Of a stretch of 64,000 bases of DNA, positions 1 through 7,672 are shown one piece after another. The translations under genes and the position numbers were made by a program. The stretch is from a virus. The number at the start of each line of letters is the position of its first letter. Position 1 is the first letter of the stretch. Under the pieces are notes generated by a model that saw nothing but the letters and a program-made list of their open reading frames with translations, made no database searches and was not told the DNA's origin. The stretch lies in IMG/VR virus record IMGVR_UViG_3300031760_000017; one strand, 5' to 3'.

Positions 1-252
1 GAGAAAAAAAGAATTGCTAATTCAAAAGTTAGGTCAACTCTGAAAAAATTAGACCATAATTTTTCTTCACATGGTGCATATAAAAAAATGTATGGACAAT
101 GGGAGATTTGTGATTGGTATTTCTTAGAATCTTGGAAAGAATATTGGGAATGTGAGAAAAGAGCATATAAAAGATTTCCTGAAGTTTATAAAAAACCTTT
201 AAATAAAAAAGAAGCTTATAGAGCTTGGTATAAAGACTATAAAATGAAATAA
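1..252 (+). CDS. hypothetical protein, C-terminal fragment (gene starts upstream of window)
   Basis: Frame 1 is open from base 1 to TAA at 250-252 (...AYRAWYKDYKMK*). No motif recognised. Confidence 0.4.
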   Translation, partial: EKKRIANSKVRSTLKKLDHNFSSHGAYKKMYGQWEICDWYFLESWKEYWECEKRAYKRFPEVYKKPLNKKEAYRAWYKDYKMK

Positions 253-262
253 AATATATATA

Positions 263-388
263 AAGGCATATACAGCAAATTCTCTTTAAGAGATGTGTTG
301 GTTCAAATCCAACATTTGCCGCATGGGCAGATTGGCGCAATGGTTGACGCAAGTGACTCGTAATCACTCTATCTTATTAATATGCCTT
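263..388 (+). ncRNA. circularly permuted tRNA-like RNA (T-arm and 3' acceptor strand lie upstream of 5' acceptor strand, D-arm and anticodon-like arm); Y-RNA/YrlA-like mimic or permuted tRNA-Thr(CGU)
   Basis: Terminal stem AAGGCATAT (263-271) / ATATGCCTT (380-388). T-arm GTTGG-TTCAAAT-CCAAC (297-313). ATTTGCC (314-320) pairs with GGCAGAT (326-332). Then come U8, a D-arm GCGC/AATGGTTGA/CGC containing GG, and an arm AGTGA-CTCGTAA-TCACT (352-368). Hand-folded. Confidence 0.5.
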
Positions 389-395
389 GTTTTAA

Positions 396-467
396 TGGGG
401 TGTCGCCAAGCGGTAAGGCATAGCACTTTGACTGCTACACACGTTGGTTCGATCCCAACCACCCCAG
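396..467 (+). tRNA. tRNA-Gln (anticodon UUG)
   Basis: Acceptor TGGGGTG/CACCCCA. D-arm GCCA-AGCGGTA-AGGC. Anticodon arm TAGCA-CTTTGAC-TGCTA. T-arm GTTGG-TTCGATC-CCAAC. 72 nt, hand-folded. Confidence 0.85.
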
Positions 468-489
468 CTAAAATTGAATGTAGTATAAT

Positions 490-945
490 GTGAATATAGA
501 CGGCGTGTGCGTGCCTAAGCTCTAAAATCGTCGTGAGGAGCCCTCATGGTAACTGCTTCTATAGCTGAAGGTGCCTACTACATCTATTACAATAAGGTCT
601 AGTCAGCCTGTACACAATGGTGAAATGATATATCCGTGTACCGTACTAAAACGTATTAGGTATTGTAATGGCGTTATGGTTCTACCAATACGTTAAATTG
701 GGGAAATGCAAATGGAACTATTTATTATTAGTTGATTCGTTTAACTTAATAAAATCAATCTTTTTTAAGCAATAGTGCATTATTGCTAATGAACGAATCG
801 TGTATAAAAAAGATTGGATTTTAGAACGATTATATGTTGATTGTTTATTAGAAGATGAGGTGCGGAAGCGGGGGCAACGCAGTACCCATAAATGAATGTC
901 TCGGCGTTGAGTAGTCAACTATTAAACAATAAATGTAGAAATCGT
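490..945 (+). ncRNA. long structured non-coding region of unknown class (ribozyme/intron-like or other large ncRNA)
   Basis: No plausible ORF with or without TAG=Gln. G+C is visibly higher than the flanks. Helices include GTACAC (610-615) / GTGTAC (636-641), AACGTATTaGGTA (650-662) / TACCAATACGTT (683-694), GATTCGTT/AACGAATC and AGCAATA/TATTGCT. A crossing pair AAAATCAATCTTTTTT / AAAAAAGATTgGATTTT gives pseudoknot topology. Confidence 0.3.
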
Positions 946-948
946 TTC

Positions 949-1020
949 GCGGGTATCGTATATCGGTTAGTATATTAGCCTTCCAAGCTAAGGGGGTGGG
1001 TTCGATTCCCATTACCCGCT
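949..1020 (+). tRNA. tRNA-Gly (anticodon UCC)
   Basis: Acceptor GCGGGTA/TACCCGC. D-arm GTAT-ATCGGTTA-GTAT. Anticodon arm TTAGC-CTTCCAA-GCTAA. T-arm GTGGG-TTCGATT-CCCAT. 72 nt. Confidence 0.85.
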
Positions 1021-1049
1021 TAACTCACAAAAGTGAGTAAAGATAAAAA

Positions 1050-1156
1050 TGTGCGGTGGTGGAATAAGTAGACACAGACTATATGAAAAGCGAGGTAGCA
1101 TCTGACTCACACAAATTCTCGCGGAGTCATGTGAGGTGTAAATCCTCACCCGCACA
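1050..1156 (+). ncRNA. 107-nt tRNA-like RNA: acceptor, class-II-like D-arm and T-arm, with a 54-nt insert in place of a normal anticodon arm
   Basis: Acceptor TGTGCGG/CCGCACA (7 bp) and U8. D-arm GTG-GAATAAGTAGA-CAC resembles tRNA-Leu. T-arm GTGAGG-TGTAAAT-CCTCAC has a non-canonical loop. In the insert, GCGAG/CTCGC and GACTC/GAGTC interleave, which predicts a pseudoknot. Confidence 0.35.
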
Positions 1157-1162
1157 TTCTTT

Positions 1163-1236
1163 ATACTTGTAGCTCAGACGGAGAGAGCATCGTCCTTCTA
1201 AGTCGAAAGTCGAGGGTTCGAGTCCCCCCAAGTATA
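1163..1236 (+). tRNA. tRNA-Arg (anticodon UCU)
   Basis: Acceptor ATACTTG/CAAGTAT. D-arm GCTC-AGACGGAGA-GAGC. Anticodon arm TCGTC-CTTCTAA-GTCGA (one U-U mismatch). T-arm GAGGG-TTCGAGT-CCCCC. 74 nt. Confidence 0.8.
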
Positions 1237-1239
1237 TAA

Positions 1240-1314
1240 TAGACATATACAGCAAATTTTTTCAAGAATAAGAAATAGACTTTTAATCTATAATTCTAAC
1301 TCAAAGTATGTCTA
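1240..1314 (+). ncRNA. small structured RNA, paralog of the terminal stem and 5' motif of the 263-388 element
   Basis: Stem TAGACATAT (1240-1248) / GTATGTCTA (1306-1314). It shares CATATACAGCAAATT with 267-281. Two stem positions differ from the first element by compensatory changes. An internal hairpin AGAAATAGA-CTTTTAA-TCTAT(AA)TTCT is present. No D-arm or T-arm, so it is not a tRNA. Confidence 0.35.
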
Positions 1315-1323
1315 GTTTTAATT

Positions 1324-1395
1324 GAGCCAATAGCCAAAGGGTTAAGGCAGAGGGCCGCAACCCCTCGATTATAAGTTCAAATCTTATTTGGCTCT
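1324..1395 (+). tRNA. tRNA with anticodon GCA (Cys), unusual C at position 33
   Basis: Acceptor GAGCCAA/TTGGCTC. D-arm GCCA-AAGGGTTA-AGGC. Anticodon arm GAGGG-CCGCAAC-CCCTC. T-arm ATAAG-TTCAAAT-CTTAT. Confidence 0.7.
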
Positions 1396-1397
1396 TA

Positions 1398-1426
1398 TTG
1401 ATTTTTTATAAAATTTTTAGTATAAT
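1398..1426 (+). promoter_or_regulatory. sigma70-type promoter (TTGATT-N17-TATAAT)
   Basis: -35 at 1398-1403 and -10 at 1421-1426, with exact 17-nt spacing. Same architecture as more than 15 other sites in the window. Confidence 0.6.
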
Positions 1427-1490
1427 ATATACATAAGGTTATGAAAATAACCTCAAACAAAGTTTGAAAAGAGATAAAAGGAGAACAATT

Positions 1491-3014
1491 ATGAATACTT
1501 TTCTTAATCAGATGGTAAGAGACAATAACATTACTCGTACAGAGAACGGTGGTGTAACTCGCAAGACAACAGAATCTAAGGTGCTTGATATGTTTGCGGT
1601 TGGCGGTGCTTATAGAAACCGTTCTGATGCAGATGTTATTCTTCTATTTAAGAACGCATTTGAGGAAAACCGTGAACTTGCTATGAAGTGTCTTTTCTAT
1701 CTTCGTGATGTTCGTGGTGGACAGGGTGAAAGACGTTTCTTCAGAACAGCTTTCCGCTGGCTTTGCGATAAGCATCCAGAAGTAGCAAAGAGAAATCTTA
1801 ATAATGTAAGTGAGTATGGTCGATGGGATGATCTTATTTATGTAGCTGAAGACACTAAGTGCCAGACTGCCGCATTTAATATCATTAAGCATCAGCTTGC
1901 TCTTGATGTTCAGTGCAAGACTCCATCTCTGCTTGCTAAGTGGCTGCCTTCTCAGAATGCTTCTAATAAAGATACTAAGCGTCTTGGTCATGTGCTTGCA
2001 AATTATCTTCATATGACAAACAAGGAATATCGTAAGACTCTTTCAGTACTGCGTGAGCGCATCAACGTTCTTGAACGCCTGATGAGTGCAAACCGTTGGG
2101 ATGAAATCGAGTTTGATAAGATTCCTTCAAGAGCTGGTATTATTTATCGTAATGCATTTGCTCGTCGCGACATTCTTGCCAAGAGATATGAAGCATTTGC
2201 TAAGAGTTCAGAAACCAAGGTAAATGCAGAAGCTCTGTACCCGCATGATATTGCACATAGAGCTTTTGATTATGGAATGAAGCGAGCTGACATTAATGCT
2301 CCTGAGCGTCTCATGCTTCAGAAGTATTGGGATAACCTTAAGGATTTCTATAATGGAAGAGAAGAGAATGGCATTGCGGTAGTTGATGTTTCTGGTTCTA
2401 TGAGTGGTATTCCTATGGAAGCCGCAGTTTCTATGGGAGCCTATATCGCAGATAAGGCTCACGGACCATTTGCTAATCACTTTATTACTTTCTCAGCTAA
2501 CCCTGAGCTAGTAAGATTTGAAGGTGTTGACATTGTTGATAAGTTCAATCGTTGTGTAAAGGCAAATTGGGGTATGAATACTAACGTTGCGGCGGTATTT
2601 GATATGCTTCTAAATACAGCTAAGAAGAAGCATGTAAAGGTTGAAGATATGCCTACTCGAATTTATATCTTCTCAGATATGGAATTTGATAAGTGCATGA
2701 CTCTTGATCCTAATTACCATGATGAATGGGGTTGGGGTTGGCATTCATGCAAGCATCCTTCTTCAACTAAGGAAGTAAATTCTGACCTTGAGAAGATCAA
2801 GAGAAAGTGGAGTGCTGCTGGTTATCAGATGCCTTCTGTAATCTTCTGGAATCTCAACGCTAGAAATAATCGTATTCCTGCTATCGGCGATGGTTTCAGT
2901 TATGTGAGTGGATTCTCTCCTTCCATGATTGATTCTATCCTTAGCGGTAAGGACGGTTATGACCTCATGCTTGATAAGCTCATGTCTAAGCGTTATGCGG
3001 CGGTTGTTGCATAA
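1491..3014 (+). CDS. Ro60-like protein: helical DUF2828/TROVE-like N-terminal region plus C-terminal vWA domain
   Basis: ATG at 1491 follows AAAGGAG; the track's 1464 start is an upstream TTG. N-terminal TENGGV...LDMFAVGGAYR. vWA MIDAS motif VVDVSGSM (DxSxS). FSDMEFD and C-terminal GFSPSMIDSIL parallel Ro60/Rsr features as I recall them. TAG-free and G+C-richer than neighbours. Confidence 0.55.
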   Translation: MNTFLNQMVRDNNITRTENGGVTRKTTESKVLDMFAVGGAYRNRSDADVILLFKNAFEENRELAMKCLFYLRDVRGGQGERRFFRTAFRWLCDKHPEVAKRNLNNVSEYGRWDDLIYVAEDTKCQTAAFNIIKHQLALDVQCKTPSLLAKWLPSQNASNKDTKRLGHVLANYLHMTNKEYRKTLSVLRERINVLERLMSANRWDEIEFDKIPSRAGIIYRNAFARRDILAKRYEAFAKSSETKVNAEALYPHDIAHRAFDYGMKRADINAPERLMLQKYWDNLKDFYNGREENGIAVVDVSGSMSGIPMEAAVSMGAYIADKAHGPFANHFITFSANPELVRFEGVDIVDKFNRCVKANWGMNTNVAAVFDMLLNTAKKKHVKVEDMPTRIYIFSDMEFDKCMTLDPNYHDEWGWGWHSCKHPSSTKEVNSDLEKIKRKWSAAGYQMPSVIFWNLNARNNRIPAIGDGFSYVSGFSPSMIDSILSGKDGYDLMLDKLMSKRYAAVVA

Positions 3015-3778: not shown

Positions 3779-5752
3779 GTGGCTTATTTATCAGGTTTAT
3801 ATCCCCCAGTTATTCCAGATGGGTATCCAGCAATGTTACAATAGGGGGAAACAATAGATTCTAAAAAATATTATAAAATATATTTCTCAATACCCAAATT
3901 AAATTCAATTAATAGCATAGATTTAAGATTTATGCAAATATCAATTAGAAAACAATCTACAAATATTTCTGTTTTAGATAAAACTAAATATTTTTCTGAA
4001 ATATTATTAACAGAAGGTTTTTTAGATAATACTAAATCATCAAATGATTATAATTATTATATATTAGTTCCATTAACTGTTTTTGAAAATAATAAGCTTA
4101 ATATAAATTAGTTATATAAAATTCAATTAAGATTTTGTGCAAAAAATTCTAGTATTCAAGAACCAACTTCTTATAGCGGTTCTGCGCTCTCTGTTTGGTT
4201 AAATACATATAATAATAGATTTTCATAGTGGTCAAGAGTTAGCTTGATAAAAGTAATATCAAAACCTACTTTAAATATAAATGGATTAAATGCTGCTTCT
4301 AACTCTCGAATTACTACATCTTTATTTGAAGTTATTGGCTTATTAAGTTTTACTAATTCATCTGAAAGTGAAATTCTAAAAAGTTATCAAATATTTTTAA
4401 AAGATGCTAGTAAAAAAATAATTTTACATCAATCTGATATTATTTATTCAAATAATCTTAATAATCCTAATTAGATTAATTATGCTATTCCATATGAAAT
4501 GTCAGATAGATTAAATTATTATATTACTATACATTATACTACTAATAATCTATATGAAAATACTGTTAATTATCAAATTAATACATATTTTACAAACACT
4601 ACTATAAATCCTCTAAATGTATTTTCTGCAATAGGGAATGAAGAAGATGGATATATAAAACTTACTATAAAAAGCAAGGGCGTTAATTTATATTCTAACA
4701 ATAATATAAAACCATTAGAATTAATTATTAAAAGATCTTCTTCAAAAACTAATTTTACTATATGGGAAGATTGGAAGATTTTTTCTTATACTGAAAAGTA
4801 TATAGATAAATAGTTTTATGATATGACAATAGAAAGCGGAATTTGGTACAAATATGGCTTGCAAATGCGCGGGACTGATTCAAATGGGCGTATAGTAAGA
4901 ACTAATATGCAGTCAATGAACAAACCTGCAATGTGTATTTTTGACAATATGTATTTAACAACAAAAGATAAACAACTAAAAATAAAATTTAACCCCGCAA
5001 TTAGCCAATTAAAATATAATGTATTAGAATCTCAACAAAATACTTTAGGAAGTCAATTTCCATATATTACTAGAAATGGAAATAATTATTATAGAACTTT
5101 TTCTATTGGCGGAATTATATCTGCTTTATCTGAAATTTTACATGAAGATAACTTATATATTTAGACAAGTTTTGAAACTAAAAACTATTGGGAAAAACCT
5201 TATTCTGTTGCGGGAGTTCTTAATAAAAAAGATATGTGGGGCGCTCCTTAGGAAGATATAGATTATAAGAAAAATGGTAATTCTGCAATTATCTTAGAAG
5301 GAGATCTTAATCAAAATACTGAATCAATTTTTGATAGTGTAGGTTTAAATGAGGATGATAATTTAATTCATAATACATAGATTGCGGCAAGCAATAATAC
5401 TTAGATGTTTTCTACAAAAAATAAAAGATTATTTGCTACAGATTCAGAAATTTATAATTAGCAATAGGAATTATATGAAGAATATAATTCAGAACATGGT
5501 ATAAATAAATATCAAGATTTTATTTATGAAAGAGAATTTAGAAAATTAGTTTTTGATTTTTTAAATTCAAATGAAATTAAATTATTCCGTTCAACACAAG
5601 AAGGTAATATCTTAATCAGATTAATTGGAATAAATTTTGAACCAGTTGAAGGAACAAATAGATTAGTTTATTCATTTTCCGCAACCGCAGTTGAAATAGG
5701 GGAAGATACTATTAGTAATTATAAAAAATATAATATTTTAAAGGAGGATTAA
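3779..5752 (+). CDS. tail/baseplate structural protein, 657 aa with TAG=Gln
   Basis: GTG start 8 nt after AAAGGAG. Track ORFs 4244, 4499 and 4823 share its frame. Hand translation shows only TAG interruptions and ends at TAA 5750-5752. Confidence 0.6.
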
Positions 5753-5755
5753 TAT

Positions 5756-7672
5756 ATGAAACATAATTTTCCATATTTACAAGATTCCTCTTTTTTAAAA
5801 TAGTTTGATTAGTTACAATTAAAAGAAAAATTCGTTAAAATTATTGTTTTAAATTTTAAAGAATAGCCAATAGCAGAAATACAAGGGCGTGTAACTGGCG
5901 GCAGTATAAATGTAGATGGATCTTCTAGTATGCGGCGAACCGCAAATCTGTCTGCTATTGTTAAATAGTAGGATTATAATATTTTAGATGTAAGAAATTT
6001 ATTATCAATTAATAAGAAAATAGAAATATTAATTGGCTTTACAAATTTAACTAATAAATATTCTGACTTTCCAATTATTTGGTTCCCTGAGGGAGTATAT
6101 TTAATTTTTTCGCCAAATATTACTCAAAGTGAGACTGGAATTAATATCTCTTTAACTTTAAGGGATAAAATGACGTTATTGAATGGAGAATGCGGCGGTT
6201 CATTTCCCGCATCAGTTACTTTTCATTAGATTGAAGATATTGATGAAAATGGAAATGTAATTATTTCTAATCCAACTATATATCAAATTATTGTTGAATT
6301 AGTAAATCATTTTGGTGAAATCCCGCTGGATAAAATTATTATAAGTGATGTTGACACTAGAATTAAACAAACAGTTCAATGGATTGGTTCTTACCCAGTT
6401 TATTTTGCTAAACATAATAATGAGTTACAAGGTTAGTTTTCTACTAATTATTTTTAGCTCAGACAAACTTTTTCAGATAATGAAATCAAAACATATAATT
6501 ATGGAGATGCTGTTGGATATGTATTAACCGATTTTATTTATCCTGGTGAATTAATAGGAAATGCTGGAGAAAATGTTGTTACTATTTTAGATAAAATAAA
6601 AAATTTACTTGGTAATTTTGAATATTTTTTTGATACAGAAGGTAATTTTCATTTTCAAGAAGTTAAAAATTATCTAAATACAACTTATCCTACAACTTTA
6701 GAAAAAGATCGAGGAAATTTAGATAATTATCTAGTAGACTATGTTGATGGCGCATCTGTATATAGTTTTGAAGATAACAAAATTATTTCATCTATTTCAG
6801 TAGCCCCTTCTTATGAACAAATTAAAAATGATTTTATTGTGTGGGGTAAAAGAACTGAATTAACTGGTGCGGAAGTTCCAATAAGGTATCATTTAGCTAT
6901 TGATAAATGTCCACGAAACAATATATTGCATCAAGGTTTTTATGAATATGTTGATCCATAGGATGATTTAACTAAATATACAAAAAAAGTAATTACTGGA
7001 CAAAACTCAATTAATATTACTTCAAGAGATTATAGAACTGAATTATATTTACAAGGAGTTGAATCTGAAAATACAGCTACCGCAAGTAATTATTATTTTA
7101 TTGAATTAAAGAATTAGTGGCCGAAAATTTATAATATAAAATAGGGAACTTTTTTAGAAGAGTCTTTTGATAATTTAGATTATTTTTTAGATATTATAGA
7201 TACTTCCGCATAGATAGGAAAATTTAGTGTTTAGAATATTGGAAGACGGACAGTAGTTATAAACGATGATTCTATTAATTGTATTTTTGAACCATAGTAT
7301 CCAGAAGTTGTTTTTATAAAAACAGTGGATCAAGATGATCAAGAGTCAAATCCTATAAGAATTGAATGTGAAAATAAAAAAATAGATTATACACAGATAA
7401 AACCAGAAATGTTTAATTTTCTTTTTCAAGGAAATCCTTATAAGTCTGCCTATGAAGAAATAAGGACAGAATTATATCAATATACAACATATAATGAACA
7501 AATAAATTTATCTATTTTACCAATTTATTATTTTGAACCAAATACAAGAATTACTGTAAAGAACAATTAGATTGGGATAGGTGGAGATTATATGATTAAC
7601 AGTTTTTCAATACCTCTTGATATAAATGGCATAATGAATTTAACTTGTATAAAAACATTAGAAAGGATATAA
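5756..7672 (+). CDS. tail/baseplate structural protein, 638 aa with TAG=Gln
   Basis: ATG 5756 is preceded by AAGGAGG. It is in frame with track ORF 7325-7570. Contains QGRVTGGSINVDGSSSMRRTANLS, a phage minor-tail-like motif. Only TAG interrupts the frame, and TAA lies at 7670-7672. Confidence 0.6.

Follow-up and report, generated by a model that had tools for sequence, protein, structure and literature searches.

The T4 species I and II RNAs (RNAC and RNAD) are encoded in a phage cluster of transfer RNA (tRNA) genes on the tRNA strand, and they derive from the same primary transcript as the tRNAs (PMC2330249, PMC9697503). GOLLD and ROOL are phage and prophage RNAs that often lie beside tRNA islands, are common in Lactobacillales and in rumen samples, and are probably co-transcribed with tRNAs (PMC5737381, PMC12286853). 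In this study, a 107-base tRNA-like RNA at positions 1050-1156 (+ strand) of a 64,000-nucleotide stretch of viral DNA (IMG/VR record IMGVR_UViG_3300031760_000017; the whole stretch is referred to as the window) was investigated by comparative analysis. The RNA follows the order acceptor - D - cargo - T - acceptor with free ends, where the cargo is a variable domain that stands in the place of the anticodon arm. As judged from sequence comparison, it belongs to a family of phage and prophage RNAs that is widespread and apparently uncatalogued. The closest described systems by context are T4 species I/II and GOLLD/ROOL, and the closest by design are YrlA, transfer-messenger RNA (tmRNA) and engineered tRNA scaffolds. 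Relative to known tRNA mimics, the distinguishing features are a single conserved chassis, a 7/6 geometry of the acceptor and T stems, and an exchangeable cargo.

The likeness to T4 species I/II considered here is one of context. Those RNAs are known from T4-like phages and no exchangeable cargo has been described for them, whereas the present family was found mainly in Bacillota phages and prophages and in rumen and gut viral contigs; the function of the T4 RNAs is still open (PMC2330249, PMC9697503). GOLLD and ROOL are 580-800+ nucleotides (nt) long, have conserved folds of their own, assemble into cages, are not tRNA-shaped and are represented in Rfam (PMC5737381, PMC12286853), whereas members of the present family measure 81-377 nt and conserve only the tRNA-like frame. 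YrlA is a tRNA-derived mimic with D- and T-arms and tertiary elbow contacts in which a tRNA-like module is joined to another module, and at least one YrlA-type Y RNA is a substrate of RNase P as well as of the enzyme that adds CCA (PMC4201824). However, YrlA is circularly permuted, with its termini in the Ro-binding stem, an acceptor closed by a loop, the order T - acceptor - D and a link to rsr (PMC4201824), whereas in the family the acceptor ends are free, a Ro-binding stem is absent and there is no link to genes for Ro60-like proteins. In tmRNA, a tRNA-like acceptor/T domain without an anticodon is likewise combined with pseudoknots in the inserted part, but tmRNA lacks a D-stem, has a tag reading frame and G3:U70 as its alanine identity pair, and measures about 260-400 nt, and none of these properties is found in the family.

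A tRNA frame that lets host tRNA enzymes process and stabilise an unrelated RNA positioned within or beside it is known from engineered 'tRNA scaffolds' and from the tRNA-like/precursor-microRNA chimeras of herpesvirus MHV68; the former are synthetic, and the latter are eukaryotic and based on RNA polymerase III and tRNase Z. In the literature searched, no natural bacterial or phage RNA with a cargo in place of the anticodon arm was found. The acceptor/T branch of tRNA-Sec also totals 13 pairs on a class II-like body; it is split 8/5 or 9/4 instead of 7/6, and tRNA-Sec has a UCA anticodon arm and an extended D-stem, whereas the element has no anticodon arm and a 3-bp D-stem. Allo-tRNAs have 12-pair 8/4 and 9/3 forms (PMC5389517). 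Like tRNA-Sec, they are decoding tRNAs with anticodon arms. No report of a 7/6 split was found in the literature searched.

Eighty related viral loci (L001-L080) were fetched via the Ro60-like protein encoded downstream of the element, and were searched with nhmmer and patterns. Homologous elements were present in 7 of the 80 loci; they have their 5' and 3' parts in common, whereas their central parts bear no relation to one another in sequence or in length. The family was defined by a 5' half UG-GYG-G-AAUARGUAG-A-CRC, a 3' half AU-GURAGG-UGYAAAU-CCUYAC and a 7-bp acceptor stem in fixed register, which the window element fits, and members were collected with at least 6 of 7 acceptor pairs required. 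Since the cargo length is too variable for a clean full alignment or covariance model, profile hidden Markov models (HMMs) of the two scaffold halves were used. The window contains a single copy, in which the 5' match (1057-1075; 14.5 bits, expect value (E) 0.14, weak alone) and the 3' match (1129-1149; 22.5 bits, E 0.00025) form one paired match; regular-expression and nhmmer searches also detect it. Ordinary tRNA-Leu genes matched the 5' half in 6 of 61 cases and the 3' half in none of 61.

At least 213 complete copies (at least 185 distinct) were recovered. The 3' motif ATGTRAGGTGYAAATCCTYACC alone matched at least 120 viral contigs and 90 genome contigs; the latter were mostly from Bacillota (Weissella, Leuconostoc, Pediococcus, Bacillaceae, Lachnospiraceae and Oscillospiraceae), with a few from the candidate phyla radiation (CPR), Bacteroidales and Proteobacteria. 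BLAST against GenBank phages returned scaffold-half matches in SPP1, phi3T, SPbeta-type phages, Geobacillus/D6E and Leuconostoc Ln-9, and also in Lactobacillus Lenus/Satyr/Maenad and in Weissella and Enterococcus phages, almost always under no annotated feature. Complete GenBank copies were read for SPP1 and phi3T, and the SPbeta-type phages are represented by the 3' motif. In SPP1 the copy is found between genes 9 and 11, within the 'moron' segment by which the head genes are interrupted, and the phi3T copy follows a yonN homologue; the predicted RNAs would measure about 108 nt and about 133 nt, respectively.

The family is absent from Rfam 15: nothing overlapped the element in window 1-1600, at the gathering score or at E<=10, and the same holds for the loci of SPP1 and phi3T and for nine others whose inserts measure 200-320 nt. 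No description of the RNA was found in full-text searches (including the conserved strings and SPP1, SPbeta and phi3T), in an SPP1 re-annotation or in an SPbeta survey; the family could be among the 10,006 unnamed candidates of PMC10690425, or in literature beyond the reach of the search. The preliminary description had viewed the window RNA as a one-off, a view that gives way to a family of more than 200 copies with an exchangeable middle domain. Two other features were seen near the GenBank copies. Just 3' of the SPP1 element (positions 2270-2316 of that locus) lies a minimal tRNA-like hairpin with an acceptor-like stem and a CGGG-UUCAAUU-CCCG T-arm, which the Rfam tmRNA model touches weakly (13.8 bits), and in phi3T a match to the Rfam DUF3800-VIII RNA (4363-4428; 44.7 bits against a cut-off of 40.2) lies ~1.2 kb downstream of the element.

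The tRNA-like frame is conserved as a structure. The two scaffold halves of 142 distinct copies were joined without cargo, and a structure of 17 pairs was counted. Standard pairs formed in 98.1% of cells for the proposed structure, against 78% after shuffling and 25-50% in slid registers; 14 of the 17 pairs had changed on both sides, against 4-8 in slid registers; and the covariation score was 0.551, against 0.153 for shuffled and 0.04-0.14 for slid alignments. All seven acceptor pairs covaried, as did two D-stem pairs, four T-stem pairs including the sixth, outermost one, and one pair between the D-loop and the T-loop. The statistics of the D-stem, the T-stem and the tertiary pair are free of any circularity from selecting members by their acceptor. 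These patterns indicate that the frame is under selection.

The window element reads TGTGCGG-T-G-GTG-G-AATAAGTAG-A-CAC-[55 nt]-GTGAGG-TGTAAAT-CCTCAC-CCGCACA (Table 1). The 7-bp acceptor stem, U8, tRNA-Leu-like class II D-arm and 6-bp T-arm of the preliminary description can all be read directly from it, and family covariation now backs the frame. The 11-nt D-loop region (G1062, AATAAGTAG, A1072) gives the D-arm its tRNA-Leu class II layout, and the D-stem carries U11-A25 in the window and C11-G25 in L034, a close relative. The acceptor helix stops at 7 bp throughout the family, with no systematic extension, and runs on into the 6-bp T-stem as one stack of 13 contiguous pairs. The A-U linker before the T-stem is at least 90% conserved or invariant in the 142 scaffolds, and the T-loop consensus UGCAAAU places a G at position 55, where tRNAs have U55. 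The remark that the D-loop and T-loop of the window 'deviate together' finds its explanation in columns 18 and 37, which covary as G:C in 124 copies, A:U in 9, G:U in 4 and U:A in 1: the window carries the A:U form (A1067/T1139), which accounts for its D-loop without GG and its T-loop UGU. The minimum free energy fold of the single sequence is unremarkable (z = -2.2) and differs from the comparative structure.

Compared with a canonical tRNA, the element has the 7-bp acceptor with free ends, U8 and the D-arm, whereas its T-stem is 6 bp instead of 5 and its T-loop does not read U54-U55-C56. No 5-7-5 anticodon arm (a 5-bp stem and a 7-nt loop with U33) could be drawn in 1050-1156, which agrees with the earlier reading of a non-decoding, intron-less RNA. 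ARAGORN made no call on the window element by default or in intron mode at normal thresholds; with introns of 0-350 nt allowed (-i), 1 of 185 members was called, inconsistently, and in tmRNA mode (-m) none. The Rfam models of tRNA (RF00005, threshold 29 bits), tRNA-Sec (RF01852) and tmRNA did not match the element even at E<=10. An ordinary or intron-containing tRNA was thus rejected on the ARAGORN default, intron and relaxed modes and the Rfam tRNA and tRNA-Sec models, and tmRNA on ARAGORN -m and Rfam. Related arrays hold a separate, canonical tRNA-Leu(TAA). The genetic code of the phage deserves a remark here. TAG is apparently reassigned in the whole window, most clearly from about 3260: reading TAG as sense lifts the coverage by open reading frames (ORFs) of 150 codons or more from 0.51 to 0.84 and lengthens the longest ORF from 782 to 2,888 codons. 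No CUA suppressor tRNA was found in the window, in the 4 kb upstream in L001 and L034, or in related arrays, and the element was rejected as a TAG suppressor because it has no anticodon loop.

The cargo is hyper-diverse and, as the copies compared indicate, exchangeable. Clustering of 175 copies gave about 140 cargo groups without detectable similarity between groups, and 194 pairs of copies share the same 7-nt acceptor and have unrelated cargos. Between the window and L034, whose neighbouring protein is 96% identical, the flanking tRNAs and the scaffold are shared, whereas all sequence between GACRCAGA and TCATGTGAGG differs, so the cargo was replaced wholesale. L173 and L177 have scaffold and cargo in common, with different outer acceptor pairs and unrelated flanks, and several contigs carry two copies with different cargos. 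Enrichment of k-mers revealed no shared cargo motif except those of a subgroup with a D-loop insertion, and the ATG-initiated frame in the window cargo is not kept in L184, the other sequence read for coding potential. The subgroup just mentioned has a second large insertion in the D-loop (GGAAUAG[...]UAGUAGACGC) and a recurrent UGGUAAAG motif; it and members with extra arms comprise L182, L129, L135, L169, L082, L202, L230, L267, L270, L271 and L282. Some cargos hold extra canonical T-arm hairpins (GGUUCGAUUCC), and that of L273 also holds a D-arm.

The cargo of the window is predicted to fold into an H-type pseudoknot of a 5-bp and a 6-bp helix. Closer cargo homologues were found in L184 and L294, and in these three distinct sequences all 28 of 28 proposed pairs form in every sequence; nine pairs changed on both sides, two of them in the pseudoknot helix, against 0 in slid registers. 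Helix S1 (GCGAG/CUCGC, 5 bp) is invariant in the three homologues and is therefore neither supported nor contradicted by covariation. In helix S2, UGACUC/GAGUCA is replaced by UGGCAC/GUGCCA (or GUGCUA); two of its pairs show in-register changes of both partners, and one pair changes on a single side. The interleaved helices GCGAG/CTCGC and GACTC/GAGTC put forward earlier are thereby supported, as the compensatory changes fall in register and none in slid registers, and the second helix is extended to 6 bp (TGACTC 1103-1108/GAGTCA 1124-1129).

Table 1. Features of the tRNA-like element and of the ACAGCAAW-class RNAs in the window.
Feature	Position	Strand	Evidence or remark
Acceptor stem, 5' strand UGUGCGG	1050-1056	+	7 perfect pairs with 1150-1156; all 7 family positions covary
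U8, G9 connector (T1057, G1058)	1057-1058	+	Across the 142 scaffolds U8 never varies and conservation of G9 is at least 90%
D-arm of tRNA-Leu (class II) type: stem GUG/CAC, G13, loop AAUAAGUAG, A	1059-1075	+	Pairs 10:26 and 11:25 covary
D-stem strands GTG and CAC	1059-1061 and 1073-1075	+	3 bp around the 11-nt loop region
A in the D-loop that forms the tertiary elbow pair with U1139	1067	+	Covariation of column 18 with column 37
Cargo domain, replacing anticodon arm and variable arm; 55 nt including U48-like U1130	1076-1130	+	Sequence-unrelated between members
Predicted pseudoknot helix S1, 5' strand GCGAG	1090-1094	+	Pairs with 1118-1122; invariant in window, L294 and L184
Predicted pseudoknot helix S2, 5' strand UGACUC, inside the S1 loop	1103-1108	+	Pairs with 1124-1129
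Predicted pseudoknot helix S1, 3' strand CUCGC	1118-1122	+	Comparison of three homologues
Predicted pseudoknot helix S2, 3' strand GAGUCA; last base is the A of the conserved 'AU' linker	1124-1129	+	Three homologues
T-arm: 6-bp stem GUGAGG (1131-1136)/CCUCAC (1144-1149), loop UGUAAAU (1137-1143)	1131-1149	+	4 of 6 stem pairs covary, outermost included
Acceptor stem, 3' strand CCGCACA	1150-1156	+	Directly abuts the T-stem 3' strand; 7 + 6 = 13 stacked pairs
Discriminator-position U and short U-rich trailer before tRNA-Arg; no encoded CCA	1157-1161	+	Family flank statistics
ACAGCAAW-class RNA, circularly permuted tRNA-like, YrlA arm order	263-388	+	Conserved in L001 and L034
ACAGCAAW-class RNA	1243-1315		Second copy in the window

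The element lies within a tRNA array, 29 nt after tRNA-Gly (949-1020) and 5 nt before tRNA-Arg (1162-1237); the array also holds tRNA-Gln and tRNA-Cys, and ARAGORN and Rfam call these four tRNAs and not the element. No terminator-like site was found within window 1-1600. Of 110 members, 43 are at most 300 nt from a same-strand tRNA, often 2-10 nt, and the remaining members mostly occur at loci that lack tRNAs. These standalone copies typically have an ArpU/RinA-like regulator on one side and HNH/terminase genes on the other. Clustering of neighbouring genes gave no constant protein neighbour, only generic late and packaging genes (HNH, terminase subunits and ArpU/RinA-like regulators). In the flanks, 51% of members have U at position -1 (background about 28%) and about 50% have U at positions 74-75. 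An encoded CCA is present in 1 of 184 members, and the discriminator is variable (A 49%, U 35%; U in the window). The stop at 7 bp, U(-1), the U-rich trailer, the absent CCA and the tRNA array together fit excision by RNase P and RNase Z out of a polycistronic tRNA transcript.

Two further tRNA-array regions attracted attention. In the window, a 480-nt ORF-poor stretch (469-948, +) lies in the array between tRNA-Gln and tRNA-Gly; it is absent from the close relative L034, shared only by L001/L293, and matches no Rfam family, apart from a weak fluoride-riboswitch-like match at 525-584 (16.6 bits against a cut-off of 34). L286, a genome contig with a very large tRNA array, shows two matches, at 7204-7432 and 1598-1649: one to bacterial RNase P class B RNA that stays below threshold (49 bits against a cut-off of 97, E 2e-10) and one to YrlA that is weak (25 bits).

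The reading that we put forward, and to which we give about even credence, is that of a non-decoding, tRNA-Leu-derived chassis that is excised and stabilised by host tRNA enzymes and displays a variable cargo as the effector. The RNA would be co-transcribed with the neighbouring tRNAs and cut out by RNase P and RNase Z of the host, acting with the CCA-adding enzyme, so that a stable L-shaped RNA would accumulate. Its exclusion from EF-Tu-dependent and ribosomal decoding would follow from three features: the lack of an anticodon, the 13-bp acceptor/T stack and G55. The chassis would then act as a natural 'tRNA scaffold' presenting the cargo, which may be an aptamer, a decoy or a binding site, and phages could pass cargos to one another by recombining within the conserved arms of the chassis. 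There are precedents for parts of this scheme: T4 species I/II are stable RNAs co-transcribed with phage tRNAs (PMC2330249, PMC9697503), and the staphylococcal non-proteinogenic tRNA-Gly illustrates that non-canonical elbow nucleotides mark tRNAs working outside translation (PMC4574755).

Several points weigh against this reading. Every processing step is deduced from genomic context and flank composition, and the statistics of the acceptor helix are somewhat circular because acceptor pairing was partly selected for. No target or partner of a cargo emerged: cargos matched only other family copies, the window cargo had no match among GenBank phages, and a search for an antisense site within the window gave a longest match elsewhere of 11 nt, as in shuffled sequences. 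Capture of the cargo from other DNA, or an antisense relation to it, was rejected on the same family-only matches and chance-level 11-nt match. Finally, a passive scaffold leaves unexplained why the loops and the T-stem are near-invariant across phages of different bacterial phyla, and such a chassis suggests that it binds something itself.

This last point leads to the main alternative, in which the chassis is the active part, a tRNA-mimic decoy or sponge that titrates or redirects a universal factor binding the tRNA elbow or acceptor, such as a host defence enzyme that targets tRNAs, RNase P, the CCA-adding enzyme, leucyl-tRNA synthetase (LeuRS) or a modification enzyme, and in which the cargo is mainly a bulky spacer against decoding. 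We consider it unlikely, though deserving of serious attention. The D-loop, T-loop, T-stem and linker are near-invariant across phages of Bacillota, Bacteroidales and CPR hosts, the derived features G55 and the 6-bp T-stem are conserved, no motif is common to the cargos, and the lack of a constant phage protein neighbour makes a host factor a plausible partner. However, compensatory changes that preserve the structure, swapping as whole cassettes and the presence of multiple copies with different inserts in one genome are not what one would expect of a neutral spacer. Without an anticodon loop, moreover, the RNA could not act as a decoy for anticodon-specific nucleases. The displayed-cargo reading and the decoy may also combine into an adaptor model. 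Of the label 'tRNA mimic' given earlier, the general sense fits a tRNA-like, non-decoding RNA with a pseudoknot, whereas the version as a Ro ligand is unsupported.

A quite improbable alternative is that LeuRS aminoacylates the chassis, which would serve as an amino-acid donor or a tmRNA-like molecule outside the ribosome. LeuRS ignores the anticodon and the variable arm of its tRNA and could thus charge the chassis, which keeps the tRNA-Leu D-arm (including U8, A14, A15, GG and a U48-like base) and a free acceptor end of 7 bp. A73, however, is a key LeuRS identity element, and the discriminator of the family is not conserved, nor is there a conserved acceptor identity pair. No tag reading frame is common to the window and L184, and the tmRNA mode of ARAGORN finds nothing. 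The non-canonical T-loop is a feature shared with the staphylococcal tRNA-Gly used outside translation (PMC4574755).

The neighbouring gene raised the further possibility, already entertained in the preliminary description, that the element is a Y-RNA-like ligand of a Ro60-like protein. The gene begins 334 nt downstream of the element (1491-3014, +) and encodes a Pfam DUF2828 + DUF7788 protein, of which sequence searches see only the vWA region. In its AlphaFold model (predicted local distance difference test 70.7), the four best fold matches in the PDB are TROVE/Ro60 structures, including the Ro60 of Thermus phage phiLo, with full-length alignment, probability 1.0 and template modelling scores of 0.37-0.52, so that the model points to a Ro60/TROVE + vWA-like protein beside the element. 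Bacterial and phage Ro60 genes usually adjoin tRNA-like Y RNAs (PMC4201824, PMC7824862). Nevertheless, we judge this pairing highly improbable: besides the 7 of 80 Ro60-like loci that hold the element, only 2 loci not selected through the gene have it near the element, most of the more than 200 copies have no such gene nearby, the element has tRNA and not YrlA topology, and the Rfam YrlA model (RF02553) detects neither it nor the RNAs described next.

Upstream of the Ro60-like gene, a different RNA class with a terminal stem recurs; its form is AAGRCnnnU-ACAGCAAW ... tRNA-like module ... nnnGYCUUG. Across loci L001-L080, in which the gene lies at about 4001, the ACAGCAAW 8-mer is found upstream of it and on its strand in 43 of 80 loci, with 128 matches, of which 101 have the closing stem and 28 a T-loop nearby. 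In the window the motif (C)AUAUACAGCAAA(U) opens the 5' strand of long terminal stems at 266-282 and 1244-1260. The first copy has a 9-bp terminal stem AAGGCAUAU/AUAUGCCUU around a small hairpin, a T-arm, an acceptor stem with a GCAUG loop, a D-arm and an anticodon-like arm (CGU), and the Rfam tRNA model matches its two halves separately, both below threshold. These RNAs are a candidate Y-RNA-like family for DUF2828-type Ro60 homologues and better candidates for the Ro partner than the element.

Least probable, and hardly tenable, is an intron-interrupted tRNA-Leu gene or a decayed, functionless tRNA-Leu pseudogene: the chassis is clearly tRNA-Leu-derived and an unrelated tRNA-Leu(TAA) in L069 has an insertion that ARAGORN calls an intron, but ARAGORN with introns of up to 350 nt called a single member, no Rfam intron or ribozyme family (group I introns included) was found in the nine loci with 200-320-nt inserts, and the 6-bp T-stem and G55, non-tRNA features conserved and covarying across more than 140 distinct sequences, are incompatible with decay. 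The L069 gene (2884-3019), which is unrelated to the family, has a normal T-loop; its 48-nt insertion is placed by ARAGORN at anticodon-loop position 33, and so short an intervening sequence is unusual in a tRNA gene of a phage.

Returning to the chassis with a displayed cargo, its 7/6 acceptor/T geometry and its elbow with G55 widen the range of molecules known to be tRNA-shaped, and tRNA finders and Rfam currently miss all of these genes. If expressed as we infer, the family would be a large unannotated class of phage non-coding RNAs and would explain some 'empty' intergenic stretches, such as those between SPP1 genes 9 and 11 and after yonN in phi3T. Bacillus subtilis with SPP1 or SPbeta would then offer a tractable entry to the function of phage tRNA-island RNAs, a question that T4 species I/II, GOLLD and ROOL raise as well. 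The family would likewise be a natural phage counterpart of the engineered 'tRNA scaffold', with one frame and very many structured RNAs. More tentatively, and with somewhat less than even confidence, these RNAs may represent an undescribed modular platform common to phages of many bacterial lineages, in which a host-processed, near-invariant chassis carries hundreds of traded, unrelated structured cargos. Such a platform would give phages a library of effector RNAs, whether aptamers, decoys or anti-defence RNAs, with copies even in SPP1, phi3T and probably SPbeta.

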